From Candidatus Heimdallarchaeota archaeon (lineage in GTDB: Archaea > Asgardarchaeota > Heimdallarchaeia > Hodarchaeales > Hodarchaeaceae), in contig RDOB01000004.1 of NCBI GenBank assembly GCA_011364965.1, positions 32,001 through 96,000 of the forward strand: a stretch of DNA of 64,000 nt. Direction: 5' to 3'. Under the pieces are notes generated by a model that saw only the letters and a list, made by a program, of their open reading frames with translations, was not told the DNA's origin and made no database searches. The first letter of the stretch is position 1. Each line of letters begins with the position of its first letter. Shown in pieces: positions 5,434-49,752 of this stretch. The position numbers and the translations under genes are program-made.

Positions 5434-6390
5434 CTATATAAATGAAGAAGCTGCAAAAAGAGAAATAAATGTCAAAATATATGGGATAATTGCATAAATT
5501 AGTGCAATGAATATAGCATGAGATCCTTGATTATCAATGGCTTTAGCAGCAAAATATATTAGAATAACACCTAACAGATGAAAGATTATTCCCAAAACGA
5601 AAAATATAATTCCTGTCTCCCCAGAAGTTCCAATTGTATCGATTGCAATTAAGTCAGCACTACTATTGACAGTTAGAGTCATTGGTTCAATAAAAAAAGC
5701 ATAATATGCTAGATTGAATATCTCTTCTATTATTGAAGGGAGATAGGTCCAACCTATGATTGTTGCCGCAGTTTTAAAATTTCTTTGATATGACGGGATT
5801 GAGGATGAAATAATTGCAAATAGTCCCCAAAGAATTAAGGAATTAATAATCCATTCAAATAAAAAATTCAATGGAGCCGTGAAAGCCCCTAGTAGTAAAG
5901 AAAATTGCATTATATCAGCAAGTGTACTAGGATCAAGAGGTCCAGATGGATCCATCCCCATACTTTCAAAGAAAGCGGATGAAAAAGTTATGTTCATTTT
6001 ACTAAAGAGAATATATGATGCAAAACCACCAATTAACCCTACTATAACAATCAAAATGATTGGTTGTCCTAGATTTGGCCTTTTTGCGATTTCTGCCATT
6101 TCTTTTTGAGGTGCTGTGATTACTCCACGGAAATGTTGGAGAAACGGAAGGGGTGGTTCTCTTCTATCCCCATATTGATAAGGAAAACTTCTTCCTGAAT
6201 CATATGGAATCGTTGAAATTCTGCTAGAATCAGAATATGAAGAGGACGGAGTTTTGATTACACCTTGTGAGTCGATTTGGGGAACTTTTTCCCCACAATA
6301 AGCGCAGAATGTAGCATTCTGGAGAATTTCCTTACCACAATTTCCACAATATCTTGGTGATTGAAAGTGAGAATTCAATATTCTAAACAT
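5434..6390 (-). CDS. Zinc-ribbon + Yip1-domain membrane protein
   Basis: CGNCG...FCAYCG N-terminus; 'VITAPQKEMAEIAKRP' followed by five hydrophobic segments with 'FKTAATIIGWTYLP', typical of Yip1 domains. Confidence 0.75.
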   Translation of the reverse strand: MFRILNSHFQSPRYCGNCGKEILQNATFCAYCGEKVPQIDSQGVIKTPSSSYSDSSRISTIPYDSGRSFPYQYGDRREPPLPFLQHFRGVITAPQKEMAEIAKRPNLGQPIILIVIVGLIGGFASYILFSKMNITFSSAFFESMGMDPSGPLDPSTLADIMQFSLLLGAFTAPLNFLFEWIINSLILWGLFAIISSSIPSYQRNFKTAATIIGWTYLPSIIEEIFNLAYYAFFIEPMTLTVNSSADLIAIDTIGTSGETGIIFFVLGIIFHLLGVILIYFAAKAIDNQGSHAIFIALIYAIIPYILTFISLFAASSFI

Positions 6391-6576
6391 CCTTTAAAAT
6401 TATGCTTTGAAGTATAGTTGAATATTTTCTTCTGTGAAATAAAAGTGTTGTTTTTACAGAAAGCATAATGTTAATTTCAAAAGAAAACAAAAAAATAATT
6501 CAATTAAGAGATTATTGTTTTTAAAAGAAAAGAAAGCATAATAGAAAGAGGTATAGGATATTTAATGGAAAAAAGC

Positions 6577-6891
6577 TTATGATCGATCCTTTAGCACAAC
6601 AATTGTAAAACTTGCTGCCTCATCAGGGGTAATTATCAATTCTGATTGGGGCATTTCTATATAAACGCTTTGAAGCTTCCCGTGATTTAAAGCATCAGAC
6701 ACACTTCTGACTTTTTTCACCAAAGATGCAACATGGGCTGATACTCGTTCAGCATCGGATTGTGGTAGGTTACTTTGTAGTGGCAATCCATCTTCATCAC
6801 ATACAAGGATTCCTTTCACTCCACGTCGGGCTGCAAGTCGTTTAATCGTATTTTGAAGAACTGAAGGTATTACATATTCATCATTGGACAT
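6577..6891 (-). CDS. Roadblock/LC7 protein (dynein light chain roadblock-like)
   Basis: IKRLAARRGVKGILVCDEDGLPLQSNL; ELIITPD; 104 aa. Confidence 0.9.
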   Translation of the reverse strand: MSNDEYVIPSVLQNTIKRLAARRGVKGILVCDEDGLPLQSNLPQSDAERVSAHVASLVKKVRSVSDALNHGKLQSVYIEMPQSELIITPDEAASFTIVVLKDRS

Positions 6892-6899
6892 TTTATCAC

Positions 6900-7241
6900 C
6901 TATTTTAATGTTGAGGGACCACCTTCCCTCTTGACAAGAGCAACAATTATTATTTCAGAGTCAAAATCAGGAATGATTTCGACATCACCAACTTCTAATT
7001 CTAATCTGATACTGCGAGCCACTTCCTTAGAAATCTCTTTAGATATATATTTCACCTTACCCACTAATGAGGCCACATTCGCTGCTACATTTTCTGTATC
7101 CTCTGATGGTAAACTTGATTGAAGTGGTAATCCATCTGTATCACATAGAACTGCTCCATATACTCCCTTGTGTTTTCCTACTGATTCTATTACTTTTTCC
7201 AGTGCTTGTTGGGATAAATATCCTGCTCCTTGTTGTGACAT
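6900..7241 (-). CDS. Roadblock/LC7 protein
   Basis: HKGVYGAVLCDTDGLPLQSSL; VASLVGKV; paralog of the adjacent gene. Confidence 0.9.
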   Translation of the reverse strand: MSQQGAGYLSQQALEKVIESVGKHKGVYGAVLCDTDGLPLQSSLPSEDTENVAANVASLVGKVKYISKEISKEVARSIRLELEVGDVEIIPDFDSEIIIVALVKREGGPSTLK

Positions 7242-7574
7242 TTTTCTTCAGAATCCGTATTATTTAAGGATACTTTTAACCTTTTGCTTTCTAATCCTAT
7301 TTTATTAGATTCTTATTTCTCTGTGCTTCAAGTAAGCTATAATGTAGATCAAAAGAAATAGAGAATGGATAAACTTTTATGACATATAATTTAGTATAAT
7401 TCTAATAAAAAATTTAATTTCATCGGTTTCCCACTGAATTAATAGACCTAACGTCAAGAAATGGAAATCATTCGATATTTCAGTATGAATACTAAAAATT
7501 CAGAGAAAAATATAGGGCTTTCAAACAAAGTTCCGTCACAGATAGCTTTAAATGTCAAAGACTTGTAGGGTCAT

Positions 7575-8024
7575 ATGATAAAATACTTGTGTGTGACATT
7601 TATGTCTGATAACAAGAAAAAGGTAAATCAAGAGCCAGAGGATAAATTGAATCTGATTTTAGACGCAATGAACACTCTAGCTGAACGTATTTCTAGTTTA
7701 GATAATAGAATTTCGAAGATAGAAGAAAAAATTGCCTCTACAGAAATTATAAATGAGGTGAATTTTGAAGGAAACGATAACGACCAAAGACAAAGTAAAT
7801 TTAATTTTAATGAACTAGACAAACATTTACGGGATACTTATGACATTTTATCTAACTCTAACAAACCCATGACCGCTTCAGATGTCGCGGAGAGAAGAGG
7901 ATTGAGTCGAAGTACGATCAGTTATCACTTGAACCAATTAGTTACTTATGGATTAGCAAGTAAGGATCAAGGAAGAGCACCAGATTCTAAAAAAGTATTT
8001 TTCCAACCGAAAGATCCTGAATAA
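7575..8024 (+). CDS. Coiled-coil + winged-helix DNA-binding protein
   Basis: Heptad segment LAERISSLDNRISKIEEKI; PMTASDVAERRGLSRSTISYHLNQLVTYG HTH; real start possibly ATG 7602. Confidence 0.75.
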   Translation: MIKYLCVTFMSDNKKKVNQEPEDKLNLILDAMNTLAERISSLDNRISKIEEKIASTEIINEVNFEGNDNDQRQSKFNFNELDKHLRDTYDILSNSNKPMTASDVAERRGLSRSTISYHLNQLVTYGLASKDQGRAPDSKKVFFQPKDPE

Positions 8025-8071
8025 CATCAATAATCAGAAAAAAAGAGAAAATGGGGGAAAAAAAGAGGATA

Positions 8072-8617
8072 TTATTGAGAAGTGTATGATAGAATGTCTT
8101 CCCCAAGATAAGCAAAAGCCTTCTTTACTCCTTCTCCAGTTTTAGCTGATGTTTCTATGAATTTTATGCCGAGTTTTGCGGCCAATTTGCTACCTTCTTC
8201 CGTAGAAACCGTTTCAGCTCCTTCCTCACGAAGGTCTATTTTATTCGCTAGAAGAACTACTGGTACTTTTGTTTCACGGCCAGAATTTGCCCAGAGGTCA
8301 TTTAGCCATTTCTCTGCATTCTCAAAAGTTTGGCGACGAGTAACATCATATACAAGTACACCACCAAATATCTTTGTATAGTAGGCTTTTACGACTTCTT
8401 TAAAGACAGGTTGACCTGCTAAGTCCCAAATTTGCCACCGAATTTGAGTACTCCCAATCTCGGTATCATATAGGGCAAAATCAGCTCCCATTGTACTCAA
8501 ATAGTCAGTATCAAAACCTTCACCAAGATATCGTTTTCGTAAAGAAGTTTTCCCGACAGCTCCATCACCAGCTAATACTATTTTCCATAATCGTCGATCG
8601 TCTGAAATTTTTCTCAC
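8072..8617 (-). CDS. Rab-like small GTPase
   Basis: G1 GDGAVGKT, G2 YLSTMGADF, G3 IWDLAGQ, G4 NKID, G5 ETSAK; no C-terminal Cys prenylation motif. Confidence 0.95.
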   Translation of the reverse strand: MRKISDDRRLWKIVLAGDGAVGKTSLRKRYLGEGFDTDYLSTMGADFALYDTEIGSTQIRWQIWDLAGQPVFKEVVKAYYTKIFGGVLVYDVTRRQTFENAEKWLNDLWANSGRETKVPVVLLANKIDLREEGAETVSTEEGSKLAAKLGIKFIETSAKTGEGVKKAFAYLGEDILSYTSQ

Positions 8618-8622
8618 CTTTC

Positions 8623-9369
8623 CTAATTAGGTAATTTTAATGATATCAAGGTATCTCGTACCCATTGTGTGAATGTAATATCGTTACTTACAATCCGATC
8701 TACTTGAATTTTGTAATCAGAGGCTGCAATTTCGGTAGGAATGATTATAAATGAATCCTTATTTGCAACAGGTTGCAAACGAATCATAGGTTTCTCAACT
8801 TTGGATGCATCATCAGCAGCAGCTAATTCCAACTCAAGTAAAAATAGAAAATCCTTTGTTTTTATATCATCGAATCCATATTTAACCATATTGTCTTCAG
8901 GTTTTAAATCTAGTAACACCCGACTCCATTCGCTAATCCAATATTCATCTGTAAACCAGTGTTCTAGGTATTCCTTTCTTCGAGCTCGTAATTCGCTCAA
9001 AACAACCATATAACGGATCATCCCTTCCCGAACTCTTTTCATTAAGTTCAATCCTGGTTTATCATACAGTTCATTTAACTTAGCTCGCTCTTTACTTAGG
9101 AGGACCATAATTTTTACAATTTCCTCAAGTTCCCGATCACTAGCGATGGGAACGTACTTTGATACTTTTTCTAACCAAGAAATCGTATTTACAACTTCCT
9201 GTTCTGAAACTTCCTTACCACGAATTGCAGCAAGGGTCTTTTGAATCAGACCTTTATTTTTGATTATTTCAATATGCTCTTTCTTCTGAGCCATCTTACG
9301 ATTTTTTATCATTTCCTCAACTTTAATCGTAGCATACTGGTCGTGTTGTCGTTCCAATTTCGATTTCAC
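8623..9369 (-). CDS. Hypothetical protein, co-transcribed with the Rab-like GTPase
   Basis: 248-aa mostly helical ORF ending 5 bp before the GTPase start. Confidence 0.7.
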   Translation of the reverse strand: MKSKLERQHDQYATIKVEEMIKNRKMAQKKEHIEIIKNKGLIQKTLAAIRGKEVSEQEVVNTISWLEKVSKYVPIASDRELEEIVKIMVLLSKERAKLNELYDKPGLNLMKRVREGMIRYMVVLSELRARRKEYLEHWFTDEYWISEWSRVLLDLKPEDNMVKYGFDDIKTKDFLFLLELELAAADDASKVEKPMIRLQPVANKDSFIIIPTEIAASDYKIQVDRIVSNDITFTQWVRDTLISLKLPN

Positions 9370-9571
9370 CTTCTCTTATATCAAGGTAACGAAAAATAAT
9401 AAAAAATACCTTCGTTTAGAATCATTCGGAGTCATTTAACTGCTTAGAATTCGTGAATGTTATCACATAAATAAATGTTGATACTGCCAAATTTGTAGTT
9501 TTGTATTTAAAAGATTTTTAACGCGGAGAGTAATGCTTACTAATTCATTCTTCTTCTTTTTTAATGTTAAA

Positions 9572-11263
9572 TTACTCTGAATATGTATCAACTCGTTTTA
9601 CATATCCTAATTTGCGTAATTGCTCCAATGATTGTTGTTCAATTTCATGATCTCTCTTAGTTATTTTAGCAGCTGTTTCGGGAGATAGAATATTTGAGGT
9701 AAACAAAGCCCTAACAGTGGGTCTTAATTCCTCTGGAAGAGAAAGCATCCCTAATGTGTCAAACGCTTGGATTTGGATGTATTTAGGTGGTTCTGTACAA
9801 TCACAAATCTTCTTACCAATTTTCTCTTCTAGACTTCGACGTTTAGCACGTGGATTAATACCCACTTCCCGAAGAAAATCATGTCTTGCATTATGAGGTG
9901 TTGTAAATTCAAAAAAGAGAAGCTCTTGGACCTCAGGGTTTTGGTAATTTTTCCTCACAAAGTCTTTGAATAATTCTTCAGGATCTCCCCGTAATAAGTC
10001 TTTTTCTCCTCCATAAGAGAGAATCTTACTTCGTAAAGAATCAGAAACAGTAGTTATATCGAAAATAAAACTTTCAAAGATCTCCTCTACTAATTTATTA
10101 GCCCCTTTAAACCCTCCTAATCTTCCTGTATTTCCAAAATCATTTATTGCATCATTGTATTCAAGTTCAAATTTCTTGATAAAATTAAACAACATATCTG
10201 TCAATGACTCATTCATTGTAGGGCTATATAAAATTCCCACAACTTTTTTACCTTTTCTCTGAATAATTTTAATGTTGCCATTATCAATATAGCGCAAATC
10301 TCCTCTTCTGCCAGCAGTTTCGGAAACCATAAGAGCAATACTTGCCATTGCGGCTGTAATCAAAGCTGGATTTTTCATTTCGTCTTCAGATTTGCCAAAA
10401 AAATAATAGTACATTGTAGAACCTGAACTTATTCCAGTAATAAACAAAGCAATTGGTGGAGCTTCAGATTCATCAACTTGTTCAATAAAAGTTCCTTTCT
10501 CAGCACTCTGATAATACTTATTGCTCAAATCATCAAAAATGTCATTAAATCTGGATTCAGGATTTTCTATGACGAAAACACCTTTGTCTGGGAATTCATT
10601 TAATTCATTAGACCAAGGAATAGAATAGAATACAGGATGTCGTAACTTTGTCTCTAAACTTTCGATATATTGATCATATTGGTTAAAAACAATTGGAGGC
10701 CTAATCATATTAAGTATTAAAAGGCTGGGCTTTGTTAAGAAGGTGAAGAAGTTTTTAATTGTAGATTTTGTGAGATTAAGGGTAGGATATTTTTCTGTTG
10801 ATATAGTCCAAACTATATCACTATTTAAGATAGCACTCATTGAAATTGATTTATCCTCGAGGCTAGAAGGAAGAATAAAAACTAGGAGGTTGATCGTGTC
10901 TTTAAAAAATAGACTATTAGTCCTATACCTTATCTTCTCATGTAGATCAGTATCTGGGATAGCACAGCCTGAAGATGGCAAAACACGTAAAAAAGAGTCT
11001 TCATTTGCATCTTCAAAGATAACTAATGCCTCTTCTACAAGTATATCATCAGAGATCTCACGAATGAAATCAGAACTAGTAAAATGAGACTTTCCATAAG
11101 ATAATAAGCTATATCGTAGTTTTTCCGTAATGGAAAAATCTACTATCAAAATTCGTGACCCTGGATTCGAACGTGCATAAGATGTGAAAACATTCAGCGC
11201 AATAGTCTTTTTTCCACATCCTGAAGTTCTTGAATAGATACTAATAATTTTGGGGGGAACCAA
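9572..11263 (-). CDS. MinD/ParA-like P-loop domain + longin-like domain + C-terminal winged helix
   Basis: KIISIYSRTSGCGKKTIALN, ILIVDF, LRVLPS, LILNMI, IPWS (MinD/ParA layout); IALFITGISSGSTMYYYFF...LITAAMASIA...IDNGNIKII (longin-like); SPETAAKITKR...LEQLRKLGYV (wHTH). Confidence 0.7.
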   Translation of the reverse strand: MVPPKIISIYSRTSGCGKKTIALNVFTSYARSNPGSRILIVDFSITEKLRYSLLSYGKSHFTSSDFIREISDDILVEEALVIFEDANEDSFLRVLPSSGCAIPDTDLHEKIRYRTNSLFFKDTINLLVFILPSSLEDKSISMSAILNSDIVWTISTEKYPTLNLTKSTIKNFFTFLTKPSLLILNMIRPPIVFNQYDQYIESLETKLRHPVFYSIPWSNELNEFPDKGVFVIENPESRFNDIFDDLSNKYYQSAEKGTFIEQVDESEAPPIALFITGISSGSTMYYYFFGKSEDEMKNPALITAAMASIALMVSETAGRRGDLRYIDNGNIKIIQRKGKKVVGILYSPTMNESLTDMLFNFIKKFELEYNDAINDFGNTGRLGGFKGANKLVEEIFESFIFDITTVSDSLRSKILSYGGEKDLLRGDPEELFKDFVRKNYQNPEVQELLFFEFTTPHNARHDFLREVGINPRAKRRSLEEKIGKKICDCTEPPKYIQIQAFDTLGMLSLPEELRPTVRALFTSNILSPETAAKITKRDHEIEQQSLEQLRKLGYVKRVDTYSE

Positions 11264-32158: not shown

Positions 32159-34330
32159 CTATGTAGGTCTAAGACCTAATCGAGTAATAAATGTTGAATA
32201 GAAAGCAAAACAATCAACTGATTCTTTTTCGTCTAATGTTACTGAAGAATGGACAATTCGATTTCTAAGATTTCTGAAATGAGTTATTTTTTTATCACTG
32301 GGAAGATCAAAACCTCGTTTACGTAATTCATGCACTTGAAGTTGAAATATAGGTTTTAATTGGCCAGAACTTGAAACAATTTGTTGATAGCGCGTAGAGA
32401 GCAAATTTTTGACTGCAGCGTCTGCTTTAATGACAAACAATTCAAAATTATCTTCTTTGAAAGCATGTTTAGCTTGATTCCATAAAACACGAACATAATT
32501 GATATTCTTCTCTGCCTGTTCAGGTTCAAGAATTGAACTAGGGACTTCATTGTCTACTTTTTCTTGATAGTCGTGGACAACAAAGTTGATTCGATCTATC
32601 ACCTGACTATAACTTAAATAAGAAGAGAGATTTATAAAAATCACTGGAATAAGAAGTAGGATTGTAGGAGCAGCAAGTATAAAAAAAGCTGTTGCCACAT
32701 TTGGTAAATAATAAGGAAGTAGGAAATCTGAAAATAATATTAAACTTATTAAATTCACAAAATTAAGTATTAATAATCCTAAAAAGGGGAATAACACCCA
32801 TTCTATTCGTCTTAATATTCGTTTTGAGACTATAAGGGTTTCATTTTCAGATGATTCAATAAAATTCAGCAAAGCATAAGTACGGAACGGTACACTAGGG
32901 ATTCTTACAAGGATTGATTCACTAGGAACTTCTTTGATGCTAAAGACGCCACGGAAGCTATATTTAATAAATTTAAAAGTTTCTTTCAATGATAATGAAA
33001 ATTCCCATTGGCTTACAGGCCCATGTATTCGATAGAGTTTCCCCTGAGTATCCAGATATACTAAATATAAAGGAAAGGCTATAATGGTAATAAATGTTAT
33101 AATTGAACCTAGAACATTCCAGGCAAAAAGTGGTGGGATATGATAGTCGAAATGAACAAAAAATTGACCTACACTGGAAGATTCAGGAGATATCACCAAA
33201 TAATACAATCCCGAGTCAACTGCGTCTAATAATATCTCAAAATTTTTATCTATTGTTTGTAAAGCCTCGTAGCCAGTATATAATGGATTTGAATTCTGTT
33301 TTCCTTCATCGAAGATTTCTACTGTGGCAAATTCCAGTATTTTTGCATCAGTAGTATTTGGACCAAATACATGAATAAATACATCTGATCTGCTAGTGTT
33401 TACATAAAACCAAAAAAAATACACTCTTCGAGGAGTAAAACCCTGAACTTGTCTAATTGATAGAGTATGATTATAAGGCAATTCAATTGCAGTTTCAAAA
33501 CTATAACCAAATCCTTCAGACGTTATAGAGATATTATATATCCCAATTGGTGATGTGTCTGCTGGTTTATGTCGAATTTTAATAAAATATTGATCAGAAA
33601 CACTTGGATTCCAAGAATAATTAAAAGATCCGCTAATCTCGGTTTCGGTTAGAACTGGATTTTGAGGATAAAGTTCACGGTAAATCGTGATTTTTGCTTC
33701 AAATAGTACCGCAGGGGTTATTTCTCTCAATGAGAGTGTACTATTCTGATTTTCGTCTAAACTTACTTTCCAGTAGTGGGTTTCATGATCAATTGAAAAA
33801 TTTGCTTGAAATTGCGATTCATCGATGGCTAGTGCAGAGACTTCATTGAAACCACTCGAAGGGATCGTTGCTAGAATTGAATAGGAATAATTCTCTGATT
33901 TATCAGGACGAATGTCATCAAGTTGTATTCTCCAATCACCAACAATAGATACTTGCCACATCCCAAGATATTTGCTAGGGTGTATAATTTGTACATCTTC
34001 ATTGTCTAATTTAATATTAGAAGGATTATATAGAGATACATTAATTCCAGATCTTGGAATGATGGAAAAATAAACTAATTGACCTCTATTGAGATCTTGA
34101 AGAATCCAATTGTGAGTGTGGGATTCATTTGTGAACTCATTAGATTGAGAAATTGAATCTGTTAAAAAAAAGGTATTATTATCATCTTGGATCGTTTTAG
34201 GCATTATAAGTAATGAAGAGGGAGGTTCTAGAAAATTCTGACTTGAACTAAAATCATTAGTTTCAAATAAAAAGCTTGAAATTATAAGACAAAGAAAGAG
34301 TGATAATAAGAACGCTTTTAGTGGTTTCAT
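32159..34330 (-). CDS. Receptor-like membrane protein: signal peptide, PPC-like beta-sandwich repeats, 3 TM, C-terminal HEPN-like domain
   Basis: Hydrophobic N-terminus; repeated 'FSIDHETHYWKV', 'SDQYFIKI', 'SGLYYLVI' modules; TMs near aa 404-426, 511-534, 545-570; C-terminal RNLRNRIVH (RxxxxH). Confidence 0.65.
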   Translation of the reverse strand: MKPLKAFLLSLFLCLIISSFLFETNDFSSSQNFLEPPSSLLIMPKTIQDDNNTFFLTDSISQSNEFTNESHTHNWILQDLNRGQLVYFSIIPRSGINVSLYNPSNIKLDNEDVQIIHPSKYLGMWQVSIVGDWRIQLDDIRPDKSENYSYSILATIPSSGFNEVSALAIDESQFQANFSIDHETHYWKVSLDENQNSTLSLREITPAVLFEAKITIYRELYPQNPVLTETEISGSFNYSWNPSVSDQYFIKIRHKPADTSPIGIYNISITSEGFGYSFETAIELPYNHTLSIRQVQGFTPRRVYFFWFYVNTSRSDVFIHVFGPNTTDAKILEFATVEIFDEGKQNSNPLYTGYEALQTIDKNFEILLDAVDSGLYYLVISPESSSVGQFFVHFDYHIPPLFAWNVLGSIITFITIIAFPLYLVYLDTQGKLYRIHGPVSQWEFSLSLKETFKFIKYSFRGVFSIKEVPSESILVRIPSVPFRTYALLNFIESSENETLIVSKRILRRIEWVLFPFLGLLILNFVNLISLILFSDFLLPYYLPNVATAFFILAAPTILLLIPVIFINLSSYLSYSQVIDRINFVVHDYQEKVDNEVPSSILEPEQAEKNINYVRVLWNQAKHAFKEDNFELFVIKADAAVKNLLSTRYQQIVSSSGQLKPIFQLQVHELRKRGFDLPSDKKITHFRNLRNRIVHSSVTLDEKESVDCFAFYSTFITRLGLRPT

Positions 34331-34521: not shown

Positions 34522-35151
34522 TTGAACCAAAATATTCGAGTTTTTAAAAAGAGACTTCAGATTGCAGAAAAGAAATGGAATGCAGTTCAAGCTCAATCAA
34601 TCAAAGCCATAAATACAATACTTGGGACTTTATCTAGATTAAATCTAATCCAACAAAGAGGTGCTTTTTCGGAGGATCTACTCGCAAAATTTCCTGATGT
34701 TCCTGAAAGAATATCCTTTCACCTGGCAGAATTGATAAATAAGAGCATTCATGATTTGAATATATACTTAAGTCAATTAAACGAAATTGTTAATGAAATG
34801 CGCAAAATAGAAGAGCAATTTCGGCAAGACTATTTATTAATAATCAAAACACAATATTCGGAGGGTAATCAATCCTGGTCACATGATCTGGAAACTCTTG
34901 AACAAGCAGAGAGGACTTTTCAAGAAATTGTTGATATGTATGATCGCGAATTATCACTCAGGAAAGAAATACTTAGCACAACTCAAAATAGCTCCTTATT
35001 TCAACCGAATTCACTAATAATCTATCTAACATTGTGGGCAGGAGAGATATATATTGAACATAACCGAATTCATGAATTAATTGAAGAATTCATGCAAGCA
35101 GAAAAGGTTTGTGAGAGAGTTCTCCAGTCTCAAGATTCGATGAGTCCTTAA
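34522..35151 (+). CDS. CINP/C1orf109-like helical protein
   Basis: KKWNAVQAQSIKAIN, LAKFPDVPERI, MYDRELSLRKEI, YLTLWAGEIYIE. Confidence 0.6.
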   Translation: MNQNIRVFKKRLQIAEKKWNAVQAQSIKAINTILGTLSRLNLIQQRGAFSEDLLAKFPDVPERISFHLAELINKSIHDLNIYLSQLNEIVNEMRKIEEQFRQDYLLIIKTQYSEGNQSWSHDLETLEQAERTFQEIVDMYDRELSLRKEILSTTQNSSLFQPNSLIIYLTLWAGEIYIEHNRIHELIEEFMQAEKVCERVLQSQDSMSP

Positions 35152-35177: not shown

Positions 35178-36590
35178 TTAGCTTGCATGAAAGTCGGTAG
35201 TATTTAATATAGAGTCTATTGTACCATTTTGTTGAGCTTGAACGAGTAAAGCTTGAATTTTATCATTGATTGAATATTCTGGTTCTCCCTTTTCTAATAA
35301 TCCCTTGACAAGCTTCATTGAAAGGGCTAAATCTGTTTTTGCAAGATTTTCATTTCCAGCTTTACATATTGCTACTCCTCTTACAGAGGTATTTGCAGGA
35401 CCCATGACGGATGTGAAAACACATCTTTTGTCGCCAGCTGTTAGATGGTCAGGAGTGTGTCCGATCAAATCAGAACTCATTGACTGAATTGCGGAAAATA
35501 GTCCAGTATATAGACAAACTTCTTGTCCCGCAGGTCTATGACTTGCAAATAGAGGTAAACCTCCATCATCAAAGATATAAACCTCTGATTCCGAAAAAAT
35601 TTTACCAAGAATACGAAAACGTTCATCTTCTTCAGTAGCATCGAAAAGATCTCTTTTTCTCTCATTTATTGGGGAAATATAGTCGTCTCCATAGTTTGCT
35701 GACTGATTTAAGAAATTTAATGATGCAGATTTTGGGAAAACGTCATCTATAGAGTTAAGGTCTGTTATTATCAACAAAGAGGTGAAACTAGAAATTTGGG
35801 GGTTAACAATATTATTTAGGTATATTTCAAACTCATCTCCAAACGACTTGGCAACTTTTTTGGATATCAAATTTAAATCATGTAGATTAAGAGGAGAAGA
35901 AGAGCTGATAGAAATAAAAATTGCTTCAAGAGATTCAAGTTCCTCTGGCATAGAAGTAACCAATTTTTCTCCAATTTGATTAATTGAAGCCTCTAATGCA
36001 CTCTCAGCGTCTTTAGCGGCAGAAATTCCATAATATAAGCTTTTGGATGCTCCAAACAAACACATCAAATCAGGAAATGAAACACCGGGATTTAAAGAAG
36101 GAGTCAAGCTGGATAACACACAATCTATGAATATTAGATAATTCCATTTACCATTTTCATCAGAAAAGTCAAAATTAAAGTAATTGGGACCAAAAAGCTT
36201 TCGTTTCTGAGGGTTTGGATTTTTGGATACATCAATAAACAGAGGAATCGAACCAGAAAACTTTATAGAGCCAGAAATTCCCCCAAGAGCTCTTAATGTT
36301 CCTTCGTCGGAAGAATTAAAAATAAAGATTAGAAAATAGGAATTTAAAAGACTTTGGATCTGAGATAATGTTGTAACTGAATCAAAAGTCACGACTTGAT
36401 CACATATTGTATCTCCAATTGCTGTTGGAGTTAATAACAAGAGAGGAAGCCGAGATTCATCTCGGGCCGATAGATAATCATGTACGATTTTCATCTCGTT
36501 TGATAGATTATCACCAATAAATACAATTTTACCACGTGGCCTGATGTATTCAAGAAAAGGATTATTTTCAGCGATTAAACTTGTATTCAT
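35178..36590 (-). CDS. Degenerate FtsZ/tubulin-like domain + C-terminal longin-like domain
   Basis: VSFPDLMCLF...YYGISA...AIFISISSSSPLNLHDLNLISKKV...IVNP...LLIITDL follows the FtsZ C-terminal domain; EVYIFDDGGLPLF...LYTGLFSAIQSMSSDL longin-like. Confidence 0.65.
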   Translation of the reverse strand: MNTSLIAENNPFLEYIRPRGKIVFIGDNLSNEMKIVHDYLSARDESRLPLLLLTPTAIGDTICDQVVTFDSVTTLSQIQSLLNSYFLIFIFNSSDEGTLRALGGISGSIKFSGSIPLFIDVSKNPNPQKRKLFGPNYFNFDFSDENGKWNYLIFIDCVLSSLTPSLNPGVSFPDLMCLFGASKSLYYGISAAKDAESALEASINQIGEKLVTSMPEELESLEAIFISISSSSPLNLHDLNLISKKVAKSFGDEFEIYLNNIVNPQISSFTSLLIITDLNSIDDVFPKSASLNFLNQSANYGDDYISPINERKRDLFDATEEDERFRILGKIFSESEVYIFDDGGLPLFASHRPAGQEVCLYTGLFSAIQSMSSDLIGHTPDHLTAGDKRCVFTSVMGPANTSVRGVAICKAGNENLAKTDLALSMKLVKGLLEKGEPEYSINDKIQALLVQAQQNGTIDSILNTTDFHAS

Positions 36591-36974: not shown

Positions 36975-38813
36975 ATGGATTTTGAAGTCATTAAGACGGA
37001 AGGTTGGGGAAAATTAGGTAAATTGAATAATGATGTCGAGATACTTACTCCCAATATTATTGATACATCTTTGTTTAAAGGAAGTAAAAATAAAGGATTA
37101 TCTTTTGAATGTATAAGCTATCCTTCTTTACAAAATCAGGGTAAGGATATTAATTCTATAAAATCCTTTTATGATTTATTTCCTAAAGATTTCAATGAGA
37201 ACCATAAATTCAATTTTGATTTTCACATTATACCTTGGGATTTACCAACTATTTATCTTGGAAATATTAAATCCTATTTAGAGAAAATTAGAGCATTAGA
37301 AATTAAAGAGAATGCAGAAGAACCAAATAAATTTTTCGTTGTGAACATTCCATACAGAAAATCAAAAGAGAATATCTTTGAATTATTAAAGCAATCAAAA
37401 CTTATCAAAGGAGTAATTCTCGGAGATATTTCATCCTTCTTGACAAATCCCATCAATTTACTACATTATATCAAATGGGTTAACCCTTGGGCTCAGAATG
37501 ATAAAATATTTCTAGCTTCGGGTGTACCAAAAAGCTTTATCCCTTTATTATCCTATTTGGGAATAGATATCTTTGATACAATGTATCTAGAAATGCAATC
37601 AATCACAAATTTTCCTAATTTAGAGTTATTACTTGAATTAAAACAATCCAAAGAATCTATTCTTGAAACAATACATCATACTCAAGAAGCATTAAGATTG
37701 GGCAAATTACGGGATTTAGTAAGGATTTATGCTAATTCCTTTCCTCCATTAAAAACAATTCTAAGATTGATTGACAAAGAATTAAACCTAGAGTTAGGGA
37801 ATGCCTTATATACATCTAGTACGCTTTATTGTACAGATGAAACAGATTTTACAAGGCCTGAAGTGACACGATTTCGAAAGAGAATAAAAGAACGATATTT
37901 CCCTCCGGATTATTTAGCTGGAATAATTTTCCTTCCTTGTTCTGCTAAAAAACCCTACTCTCAATCAAGATCTCATCAGATGTTCCAAGCCAGTATTCGA
38001 AAACGGATAAAAAGAAAACGCCATCTTATTCATGAAGTTATAATTACGAGCCCTCTTGGCATTGTTCCTCGTGAATTGGAGTATACATTTCCCGCGGCCC
38101 ACTACGATATTCCTGTAACAGGTGATTGGAGTGAGATTGAAAGAAATTTGTTAAAAGAGGATATAACAAACTTTTTGGGAAAAATCAACCCAAATCTGCC
38201 AATAGTAGGATATGTTGAGGGACCTGAGAAGGAAGTATTGGATTCTATCTCTAAAAAGGTAAATAGACCAATGTATCTTGTTTCAGAAGATTACAAATCA
38301 TTAACTTCGAAAGGTGCTTTATCGGAGTTTTCTACCTTATTAGCTGATGCATTCGAAAATATATCCCTAATAAAAGTCGAAGATCAGACAATACGCTTCC
38401 TTAAGGCGATTGCAGACTTCCAATTTGGTAAAGGAGTAGGAAAACAGCTTTTCTCAGGAAATATCAACATATTTGGAAGAAAGGAATTAGGGTTACGGGT
38501 TAAGAGAAACGAAGAGCATCTGGTTACATTCAACCCAGTTAACGGATTTCTAACACTTTCATTACAAGCAGCGAACTTAATATTAGACAAAACTCCCAAT
38601 ATAGTGGTTTTTGATGGAGAAAAAATAATTGGATCAACAATATTCTCAAAAGGAATTATAGAAGCTAATTCAGAGATACGATCTGGAGATGAAGTCATTG
38701 TATTAAATTCTAATAGACAGATTATTGGTGTGGGGACATCTTACCTTGCTGGAGACTTATTAGTGAGAATGAAGAAAGGAAAGGGAATTTCCATAAGAAA
38801 AAAGGTGAAATGA
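36975..38813 (+). CDS. arcS: Archaeosine synthase subunit alpha (ArcS/TgtA2) with PUA domain
   Basis: LPCSAKKPYSQSRSH, TSPLGIVPRELE, PAAHYDIPVTGDW, IADFQFG, C-terminal PUA (IRSGDEV). Confidence 0.92.
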   Translation: MDFEVIKTEGWGKLGKLNNDVEILTPNIIDTSLFKGSKNKGLSFECISYPSLQNQGKDINSIKSFYDLFPKDFNENHKFNFDFHIIPWDLPTIYLGNIKSYLEKIRALEIKENAEEPNKFFVVNIPYRKSKENIFELLKQSKLIKGVILGDISSFLTNPINLLHYIKWVNPWAQNDKIFLASGVPKSFIPLLSYLGIDIFDTMYLEMQSITNFPNLELLLELKQSKESILETIHHTQEALRLGKLRDLVRIYANSFPPLKTILRLIDKELNLELGNALYTSSTLYCTDETDFTRPEVTRFRKRIKERYFPPDYLAGIIFLPCSAKKPYSQSRSHQMFQASIRKRIKRKRHLIHEVIITSPLGIVPRELEYTFPAAHYDIPVTGDWSEIERNLLKEDITNFLGKINPNLPIVGYVEGPEKEVLDSISKKVNRPMYLVSEDYKSLTSKGALSEFSTLLADAFENISLIKVEDQTIRFLKAIADFQFGKGVGKQLFSGNINIFGRKELGLRVKRNEEHLVTFNPVNGFLTLSLQAANLILDKTPNIVVFDGEKIIGSTIFSKGIIEANSEIRSGDEVIVLNSNRQIIGVGTSYLAGDLLVRMKKGKGISIRKKVK

Positions 38814-48302: not shown

Positions 48303-48776
48303 TTAGAAATTTTCGAGCTCTTTTAACGCGGCCATGATCGATTGGGATTCTGGCTTTTTTATTTTTACTGCAGAGGGCTCTGATAGCTTATCCATTAGTG
48401 TAGATAGGGTGCCAGAGGTTTCTTTCATTCTAACTCTGATTAAACCAAGTTGGGCGTCACCTTCTGCAACCACAACTAGTACTCCTCTCTCTCCGCTTTG
48501 AGCTGTTAAAATTTTCCCATCTGTAAACTCAGCAAGCATCAATCCGAGTTCCCCTAATGTTAGCGCACTTCCTTGTTCTGCTGCTCCACAGAAAACGGCG
48601 GATGCTATGGCTCCTATGCTTTCAAGATCAAACGCACCCATAGTTTCAGAAACTAATAACCTAGAAGCTCGGGCGATAGTTAAACCGGTTCGATCTCCTA
48701 ATAAAGTAACTTTGATCGAGGTATCACTCTTCAAAAGTTTTGTCAGTTCTTTGTGAATTGCGTCTCTTTGTTGCAT
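48303..48776 (-). CDS. Roadblock/LC7 (MglB-like) protein
   Basis: TLLGDRTGLTIA, IGAIASAVF, EFTDGKIL, QLGLIR; ATG 48776 after GGTG preferred over track start 48791. Confidence 0.88.
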   Translation of the reverse strand: MQQRDAIHKELTKLLKSDTSIKVTLLGDRTGLTIARASRLLVSETMGAFDLESIGAIASAVFCGAAEQGSALTLGELGLMLAEFTDGKILTAQSGERGVLVVVAEGDAQLGLIRVRMKETSGTLSTLMDKLSEPSAVKIKKPESQSIMAALKELENF

Positions 48777-49035
48777 CGAATAAACACCCAAATCCGCATT
48801 ACTTAGTATTCGCTCTGCTACTTAAATGATTTTACCTTGTAATAGTTTAAGTAGTTTTTCAAATAGGGTCTCAACCTTATCCTCATTTTGAATTTTTTGT
48901 TTAGAAATTATTCCTCCAAAATTCTACTGTTAATCTATAAGGAATGATGATATAGATGCCAAGGAAGTACTTTAAACTTTCCCTTTTCAGACGGATTAAT
49001 TCTATAAATCGTTTTCCATTATTAATCTTTAATAA

Positions 49036-49752
49036 TTAAAGTACAATAATTACAATTACCAGTGCGATGACTGATCCTGCAAGTAATGCTAGCAATGTCC
49101 GATTTTGTGTTAACTTTCTTGAAATTTTGATTAGAGTTGCTTGAACATTCTTTAATTTATCATCTACTGCCGTGATTTTCGTATCAATTTTATCAATTTT
49201 AACTCCCTGTTCATCTAACCTTTGTGTTAATGTGGCTAGATTCTGGGAAATTTGTTGGATTTGATTATTCATCTGATCCATAGAGGTTAGGAATGAATTT
49301 TCTAGGATTTGTAATCTTTCTTCAAGTGTACCTACATTTTGAGAGGTGATAGCTTCCCCTGGATAAGCAATTTCATAGATCCGATTACCGAGATGAGTTT
49401 CTGGAGGACTAGCTTTTAGATCCATAGTTTCGATTGAACTTCCGATTCCACTCAACGTTTCTCTTAGATGACGCATTTTTTGTTTCGTAGTCAGAATTTC
49501 TTTTATTTTCTCATTTTGACGCTTAATTTGCACAGGTTGTAAGAATTTTGGCAAAGAAGAAGCAATTTTGGTAGAGAGGGATCTCTGTTTAATAACTTGG
49601 TCTGAATATCCAGAATGCATGTCATCAGCCATATCTTCCATTGTTTCCAATATTGTATCCAAATCCCCAATGAAATCCATGATCATTTCCTTTTCAGTTG
49701 GCTCAGATGGCTTTTTTAACCATTTTTCCAAACGCTTAGTTATCACAGACAT
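49036..49752 (-). CDS. Tail-anchored SNARE-like (Qc/syntaxin-6-like) coiled-coil protein
   Basis: Heptad segment centred on LDEQ (Q182), basic linker SRKLTQNR, single C-terminal TM with no luminal tail. Confidence 0.7.
   Translation of the reverse strand: MSVITKRLEKWLKKPSEPTEKEMIMDFIGDLDTILETMEDMADDMHSGYSDQVIKQRSLSTKIASSLPKFLQPVQIKRQNEKIKEILTTKQKMRHLRETLSGIGSSIETMDLKASPPETHLGNRIYEIAYPGEAITSQNVGTLEERLQILENSFLTSMDQMNNQIQQISQNLATLTQRLDEQGVKIDKIDTKITAVDDKLKNVQATLIKISRKLTQNRTLLALLAGSVIALVIVIIVL

Follow-up and report, generated by a model that had tools for sequence, protein, structure and literature searches.

What does an FtsZ become when its nucleotide-binding signature is gone and a longin-like domain follows its C-terminal subdomain? 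The question is raised by a single gene in a stretch of 64,000 nucleotides of Candidatus Heimdallarchaeota archaeon (assembly GCA_011364965.1, contig RDOB01000004.1, positions 32,001 to 96,000), here called the window, which has a G+C content of about 34% and carries genes of the eukaryotic signature protein (ESP) type, many Ras-like GTPases, and Roadblock proteins. The organism belongs to the Hodarchaeales, to which this gene content and the source labels of homologous proteins also point, and which have been proposed to be close archaeal relatives of eukaryotes; small-GTPase switches coupled to the cytoskeleton typify the organization of eukaryotic cells, and longin platforms are central to the regulation of Rab, Rag, and Arf. 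The gene (35178..36590, minus strand; 470 codons plus stop) is the longest open reading frame at its locus, according to the list of reading frames and their translations, and its product, P0001, consists of an FtsZ-like body, a variable linker, and a predicted longin/Roadblock-type domain. The identity of P0001 as an FtsZ-derived body is firm, and its function is inferred.

The FtsZ-derived body and its altered loops

The body comprises an N-terminal, formerly GTPase, subdomain (residues 16-164; 36099..36545, minus strand), delimited by structural alignment to the FtsZ N-domain, and the equivalent of the T7 loop and the FtsZ C-terminal subdomain (residues 165-285; 35736..36098, minus strand), recognized by a weak Pfam FtsZ_C match, profile matches in the PDB, and hhalign. 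An AlphaFold2 model of P0001, built from a 26-sequence family alignment and no templates, had a predicted local distance difference test (pLDDT) score of 76 overall and 80-95 across most of residues 20-285. Foldseek searches of the PDB with this model returned FtsZ chains only (best E-value 5e-12, about 310 columns), and VIA-align placed residues 16-278 on residues 7-311 of Mycobacterium tuberculosis FtsZ with a Z-score of 21.1 and a root-mean-square deviation of 3.0 Å over 250 aligned residues; the Z-scores to FtsZ1 of Methanocaldococcus jannaschii and of Odinarchaeota were 19-21. Residues 16-278 are thus predicted by the model to form a complete two-subdomain FtsZ core, with a Rossmann-like N-domain, H7, and the C-terminal subdomain. 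Another Rossmann-like fold for the N-domain was considered and ruled out, since both subdomains align as one unit (Z 21) and the top 50 entries shown were all FtsZ.

In sequence comparisons, the family profile gave 27 matches among all PDB sequences, all of them FtsZ (best E-value 0.0028), with alignments that span the T7 loop and the C-terminal subdomain. The only Pfam match to the body was FtsZ_C (PF12327), with E-values of 0.036-0.081 and a score of 13.7-14.8 bits, below the cut-off of 27. P0001 had no Pfam match to Tubulin (PF00091), and hhalign found nothing between residues 1-164 and the FtsZ N-domain in global or local mode. Residues 16-79 (S1-S3) are tied to FtsZ by the predicted fold alone, and residues 80 onward are also tied through a sequence bridge formed by two relatives, P0091 and P0093. 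A preliminary description, made from the DNA letters and translations, had read the protein as an FtsZ-type fold joined to a longin-like domain after a linker; all the strings it quoted were found in the translation of 35178-36590 (minus strand), its FtsZ assignment agrees with the structural and profile matches above, and its longin assignment with a C-terminal model that matches almost only longin/Roadblock chains and with a linker that is variable.

Like canonical archaeal FtsZ1 (M. jannaschii, 1FSZ and 1W58; Odinarchaeota, 9V7V; and the genome's own FtsZ1), P0001 has the whole core fold and a recognizable sequence in the T7 loop and C-terminal subdomain. Unlike them, it lacks the G-box, the T1 loop, and a SepF-type tail; its T3 is shortened, its T7 damaged, and its core about 45 residues shorter, a longin domain is added, and it evolves far faster. 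An FtsZ-shaped core with an N-domain that escapes Pfam is also found in compact bacterial FtsZ-like proteins of the ESM Atlas (240-272 aa; FtsZ_C only or no Pfam domain), which match residues 15-278 of P0001 with template modeling (TM) scores of 0.69-0.74, normalized to the Atlas model; however, these are bacterial, lack a longin domain, and have no demonstrated kinship with P0001.

The T4-loop equivalent (residues 92-98; 36297..36317, minus strand) reads NSSDEGT in place of GGGTGTG, as established from column counts in the 26-sequence alignment and from an alignment chain through P0091. In this chain, FtsZ FITCGLGGGTGTGAA corresponds to FIVYNST---DSSIM of P0091 and to LIFIFNSSDEGTLRA of P0001. 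S93 and S94 are invariant, N92 is present in 23/26 sequences and an acidic residue (E/D) occupies position 95 in all 26, so that T4 reads N-S-S-(E/D), with an acidic side chain at the place of phosphate binding. The [SAG]GGTG[SAT]G signature was found in 0 of the 67 family members versus four of the four checked among the GTPase-intact FtsZ-longin fusions described below (hereafter, active fusions). The T7-loop equivalent (residues 169-174; 36069..36086, minus strand) reads GVSFPD in place of NLDFAD in the HMMER alignment to Bacillus subtilis FtsZ and in hhalign, and the corresponding chain is INLDFADV in FtsZ, INIDFNDF in P0091, and PGVSFPDL in P0001. Its family consensus, G-(V/I)-S-F-(S/P)-(D/N), departs from the N-x-D-x-x-D pattern, as the Asn and the first Asp are gone: G is present in 24/26 sequences, the place of the first Asp is taken by S in 19/26, and that of the second is D in 16/26 and N in 8/26. 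In the register of secondary structures, the T1 loop GGAGNN appears to correspond to D-x-L-x-x-E, and T3 appears to be about 11 residues shorter. The loss of the GGGTGTG signature, the damage to T7, and the mapping of motifs, all put forward in the preliminary description, were reproduced residue by residue through P0091. An NFDFSD string at residues 139-144 (36159-36176, minus strand) also fits N-x-D-F-x-D; it sits at the T6 position, is confined to P0001 and P0002, a relative at 84% identity, and looks like a chance look-alike.

Because of these changes in T1, T3, T4, and T7, the loss of both GTP binding and GTP hydrolysis is likely, as judged from the motifs. P0001 could instead be a tubulin-superfamily protein that still binds a nucleotide, and possibly polymerizes, with a remodeled pocket. 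The residues of the former nucleotide face agree with this to some extent, as R47, D64, Q65, S93, and S94 are invariant, N92 and D120 are near-invariant, all of them are polar, and a DTGxG loop stands at the T5 position in most members. However, the G-box is absent from all 67 members, the T1 glycines are replaced, T3 is shortened, T4 has an acidic residue where phosphate is bound, T7 has lost its Asn and first Asp, and the T5 consensus is not kept in P0001 itself, which makes a remodeled pocket rather improbable.

Longin domain, conservation, and distribution

The linker (residues 286-319; 35634..35735, minus strand) is probably disordered, with a pLDDT below 50 for residues 288-318. It leads to the longin/Roadblock-type domain (residues 320-460; 35211..35633, minus strand), for which a separate model (m68207a422714; pLDDT 79) predicts one helix, two strands, one helix, three strands, and two helices. 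When this domain was compared with 48,161 PDB representatives (VIA-align wide), nearly all of the top 50 belonged to the longin/Roadblock superfamily, with Z-scores of 9.3 for Lamtor, 9.0 for CPLANE/Fuzzy, 8.9 for BLOC-3, 8.8 for TRAPP Bet5, and 8.4 for Mon1, followed below Mon1 by AP sigma/mu, VAMP7, SRX, and MglB. Foldseek placed MON1A and Mon1-Ccz1 first (E-values 2.3e-4 to 1.6e-3). Lamtor, MglB, and Roadblock chains gave Z-scores of 6.2-9.3, and an N-terminal helix (320-331) is present as a Roadblock feature, while the two C-terminal helices point to longin. Neither PF03259 (Roadblock) nor any other Pfam family matched residues 320-470 of P0001, and the divergent member P0067 has a weak match to Fuz_longin_1 (E-value 0.0019, 18.9 bits against a cut-off of 26.1). 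Because the Z-scores are moderate, the assignment goes no further than the longin/Roadblock superfamily; within it, the predicted domain most resembles the first longin domain (LD1) of Mon1/Fuzzy, which binds Rab.

The best structural matches (Z 8-9.3, Foldseek E-values 2e-4 to 2e-3), which share the fold and the order of secondary structures, are the LD1 of Mon1-Ccz1, of Fuzzy-Inturned/CPLANE, and of HPS1-HPS4/BLOC-3, together with TRAPP Bet5/Trs23 and the Roadblock proteins MglB and Ragulator. Compared with the tri-longin Rab guanine nucleotide exchange factors (GEFs), P0001 has no significant sequence match, an extra N-terminal helix as in Roadblock, and a single longin domain on an FtsZ body, and its GTPase binding is putative, by analogy. 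The protein ends in a short tail (residues 461-470; 35181..35210, minus strand) with A469 and S470 invariant (26/26); of the four full-length active fusions aligned, three likewise end in Ala-Ser and one in ASS, and an orthologue from the sister family described below has the terminal Ala-Ser as well.

A word-indexed search of 5.8 billion proteins recovered 67 homologues of P0001, nearly all of 440-480 aa and all without a precomputed Pfam domain; the named ones are hypothetical proteins from metagenome-assembled genomes (MAGs) of Hodarchaeales/Heimdallarchaeota. An exhaustive HMMER search of 1.84 billion cluster representatives gave two full-length clusters, in addition to fragments and a few matches to the C-terminal domain only. 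The gene is present as one full-length copy without stops in 22/22 genomes of the GTDB family of the window genome (f1), and strongly diverged orthologues are present in both genomes of the sister family (f2); none turned up in the remaining 59 genomes of the class or in a wider sample of the phylum (400 genomes). In full-text literature searches, no paper was found that describes FtsZ fused to a longin domain or a GTP-dead Asgard FtsZ; the component fold families are already known, and the architecture of P0001 and its pseudo-enzyme state are undescribed.

For P0001, identities across the genomes compared are 46-60%, and for the genuine FtsZ1 from these genomes 80-91%; P0001 thus evolves much faster. 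The mean pairwise identity within the family is 0.71 for the longin domain, the most conserved part of the protein, 0.52 for the N-subdomain, 0.48 for the C-subdomain, and 0.17 for the linker. A rate about three to four times that of FtsZ1 would fit a decaying relic without function, a pseudogene in progress. However, the gene is intact, single-copy, and free of stops throughout f1, both domains are far better kept than the linker, and positional orthologues persist in clades at about 22% identity, so this reading is already contradicted by the conservation data and is hardly credible. The fast evolution, together with two domains far better kept than the linker, points instead to a pseudo-enzyme with a retained non-catalytic role and not to a dying gene.

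Relatives, descent, and a proposed adaptor role

Searches with the C-terminal domain also recovered the active fusions (P0072, P0079-P0083, and P0085-P0090; e.g., MFX0113186.1) from MAGs labeled Hodarchaeales. These proteins of 571-577 aa have an FtsZ core, a linker, the same longin subfamily, and the terminal Ala-Ser (ASS in one aligned member), as P0001 does. In contrast to P0001, they have intact GTPase motifs (GGGTGTG and NLD(F/Y)SD), pass the Pfam cut-offs for Tubulin (4e-40) and FtsZ_C (1.5e-19), and have another genomic context. They are named only "cell division protein FtsZ"; that is, the active fusions are annotated simply as FtsZ and the apparently inactive ones as hypothetical proteins. 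The P0001 family and the active fusions are collinear in hhalign over T7, FtsZ_C, linker, and longin domain (99.3%, E-value 4e-20).

Among longer proteins, the C-terminal-domain profile also found P0091 (509 aa), P0093 (515 aa), and P0092, which is of the f2 type, besides the P0001 family and the active fusions. An FtsZ or FtsZ-derived body accompanies the longin subfamily of P0001 in every long protein found to carry it. P0091/P0093 match the genome's FtsZ1 with a probability of 94.5% (E-value 7.8e-8) over FtsZ residues 128-342 (S4 onward), and the P0001 family at 99.3% (E-value 2e-20) over P0001 residues 80-451. They share with P0001 the loss of the T4 signature (NSTD in P0091) and the convergent C1orf109-like gene; they differ in that T7 is largely kept (INIDFND in P0091, INLSFGD in P0093) and the S9 WG motif is still recognizable, and they are about 22% identical to P0001. 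The f2 orthologues have no recognizable FtsZ sequence feature left in the body, and the longin domain persists. The simplest reading of this series is that FtsZ and longin were fused once in an ancestor and that the fusion then decayed by degrees, from the active form through P0091/P0093 and the P0001 family to f2. P0091 and P0093 are positional orthologues of the P0001 gene, because the C1orf109-like gene converges on the 3' end there too, and the active fusions, with their different genomic context, are probably paralogues. No active fusion was found in the window genome, its order or class, 400 Asgard genomes, or the contigs of GTDB species, and there is no synteny between the active-fusion locus and the genome's FtsZ1 locus, with a faint trace only to a GTPase locus on contig C11.

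The genome's canonical FtsZ is of the FtsZ1 type (C13:176902-178170), as are the active fusions. There is one canonical FtsZ per genome of the order, and FtsZ2 was not detected in the order's genomes with the queries used. The preliminary description had assumed a pair of FtsZ1 and FtsZ2; instead, the genome has one FtsZ1-type protein and a CetZ-like protein. The latter, a tubulin-superfamily member of 454 aa outside the window (G000 C12:14062-14550 region; L002:649-2013, minus strand), has the CetZ structures 3zid and 4b46 as its best PDB matches.

The locus order of the active fusions is TFIIB, Ras-like GTPase, FtsZ-longin, and EamA. The fusion gene lies 250-620 bp downstream of the gene for a Ras-like GTPase of 188-190 aa, on the same strand, in the five of five contigs that reach that side (L033:6620-9522, L034:7029-9640, L042:4178-6728, L044:4168-6728, and L045:1525-4085). 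This adjacency in the GTPase-intact relatives lends indirect support to the small-GTPase connection that the preliminary description had suggested. The window genome, which has roughly 34 Ras-superfamily GTPases, holds a 67%-identical orthologue of this GTPase elsewhere (C11:385762-386319), near a Roadblock gene. Longin/Roadblock dimers are established small-GTPase platforms (PMC10933270).

The longin fold close to the Rab-binding LD1, the GTPase adjacency of the active fusions, and the known platforms together favor an adaptor that docks a Ras/Rab-like GTPase. On this basis, it is tentatively proposed, at somewhat less than even confidence, that P0001 is a non-enzymatic FtsZ-longin descendant that couples FtsZ1 filaments to a small-GTPase switch. 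P0001 itself would neither hydrolyze GTP nor polymerize, and would act as an adaptor. Its longin domain would dock a Ras/Rab-like small GTPase, as the platforms of Mon1-Ccz1, TRAPP, and MglB do, while the body would still bind a real FtsZ1 filament, with the T7 (bottom) face of P0001 against the filament's GTP-bearing end. Because the top face of P0001 would no longer accept a subunit, the docked protein would cap or mark the filament. A small-GTPase switch would thereby come to control FtsZ filaments, or would be brought to them. Capping of FtsZ filaments, or co-assembly with them, at the division site was already conjectured in the preliminary description. The asymmetric decay of P0091/P0093, with T4 gone and T7 and the S9 WG kept, may weakly fit a one-sided cap. 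A complex prediction for the FtsZ1 core (40-352) and the P0001 body (12-285) scored 0.31 against a mark of 0.32 and weighs neither way.

Several points weigh against this proposal. Neither in the window nor in any of the 11 related loci compared with it does a small-GTPase gene adjoin the P0001 gene, and the contigs with the active fusion are closely related, so that the GTPase adjacency amounts to about one observation. The retention of T7-H8 may be purely structural, and a new ligand or partner may occupy the former pocket, where the polar residues listed above are kept. The interaction of P0001 with FtsZ1 and a GTPase is itself a proposal, and the loss of GTP binding is read from motifs.

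The same facts could be accommodated by a regulator independent of FtsZ, in which the body is a leftover that serves as a rigid scaffold or for oligomerization and the longin domain is a GEF, GTPase-activating protein (GAP), or effector platform unrelated to filaments or division. The longin domain is by far the best conserved part (0.71 versus about 0.5) and persists in f2, where the body has diverged past recognizable FtsZ sequence; the conserved neighbors of the P0001 gene are unrelated to division, and the genome has a CbiA/MinD-type protein beside a Ras-like GTPase gene. However, the body is clearly constrained in f1 (0.48-0.52 versus 0.17 for the linker), a complete two-subdomain FtsZ core is kept (Z 21), and this longin subfamily is found only on FtsZ or FtsZ-derived bodies. 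Such a regulator is a serious possibility, even if doubtful.

The coupling of P0001 to FtsZ1 filaments can be extended to the whole Hodarchaeales FtsZ-longin family, with one active and at least three progressively degenerate forms, which would wire a tubulin-superfamily cytoskeleton to Ras/Rab switches, the inactive form being a filament-end cap or marker set by a GTPase; this wider claim is on the unlikely side. One polypeptide, fixed throughout an archaeal family and with relatives both active and inactive, joins an FtsZ body to a longin platform, which suggests a testable link of the archaeal cytoskeleton to small-GTPase signaling. These are expressible proteins with which to ask whether Asgard small GTPases regulate FtsZ-type filaments, how a polymerizing GTPase turns into a pseudo-enzyme, and what archaeal longin domains bind. 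If the coupling is true, prokaryotes would offer a precedent for cytoskeletal organization under GTPase control, together with a natural series from a cytomotive GTPase to a pseudo-enzyme adaptor.

Gene neighborhood

The gene order around the P0001 gene is kept in 11/11 related loci, with a membrane protein on one side, a C1orf109-like gene convergent at the 3' end, and an ArcS-like gene divergent at the 5' end. The C1orf109-like gene (34522-35151, plus strand) encodes a CA109-like ribosome-biogenesis protein of 209 aa (Pfam E-value 9.8e-10; 39 bits, above the cut-off of 27) and lies tail-to-tail with the P0001 gene across a 26-bp gap. The pair is kept in all 11 related loci and also in the P0091/P0093 loci, where the C1orf109-like proteins are 23-25% identical to that of the window. 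The conserved neighbor at 32159-34330 (minus strand; 723 aa) has only weak and unrelated Pfam matches (DUF2808, MobA_MobL) and accompanies the P0001 gene across f1 and in the f2 genome G070 (31% identity over 564 aa). The ArcS-like protein (36975-38813, plus strand; DUF5591, TGT_C2, PUA) is divergent from the P0001 gene in all related loci, and its first ~296 residues gave no Pfam TGT match at E-values up to 1.

Further away in the window, a cluster of genes related to small GTPases (5434-11263) includes a Zn-ribbon-Yip1 gene (5434-6390), two Roadblock/LC7 genes (6577-7241), a winged helix-turn-helix gene, a Ras-family GTPase (8072-8617), and a MinD/ParA-type (CbiA) protein of 562 aa (9572-11263), whose central region is not a significant match to the P0001 longin profile (probability 4%). 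Additionally, a Roadblock/LC7 protein (48303-48788) is encoded beside a coiled-coil protein of 237 aa (49036-49752), on the minus strand, the latter with weak Pfam matches only.

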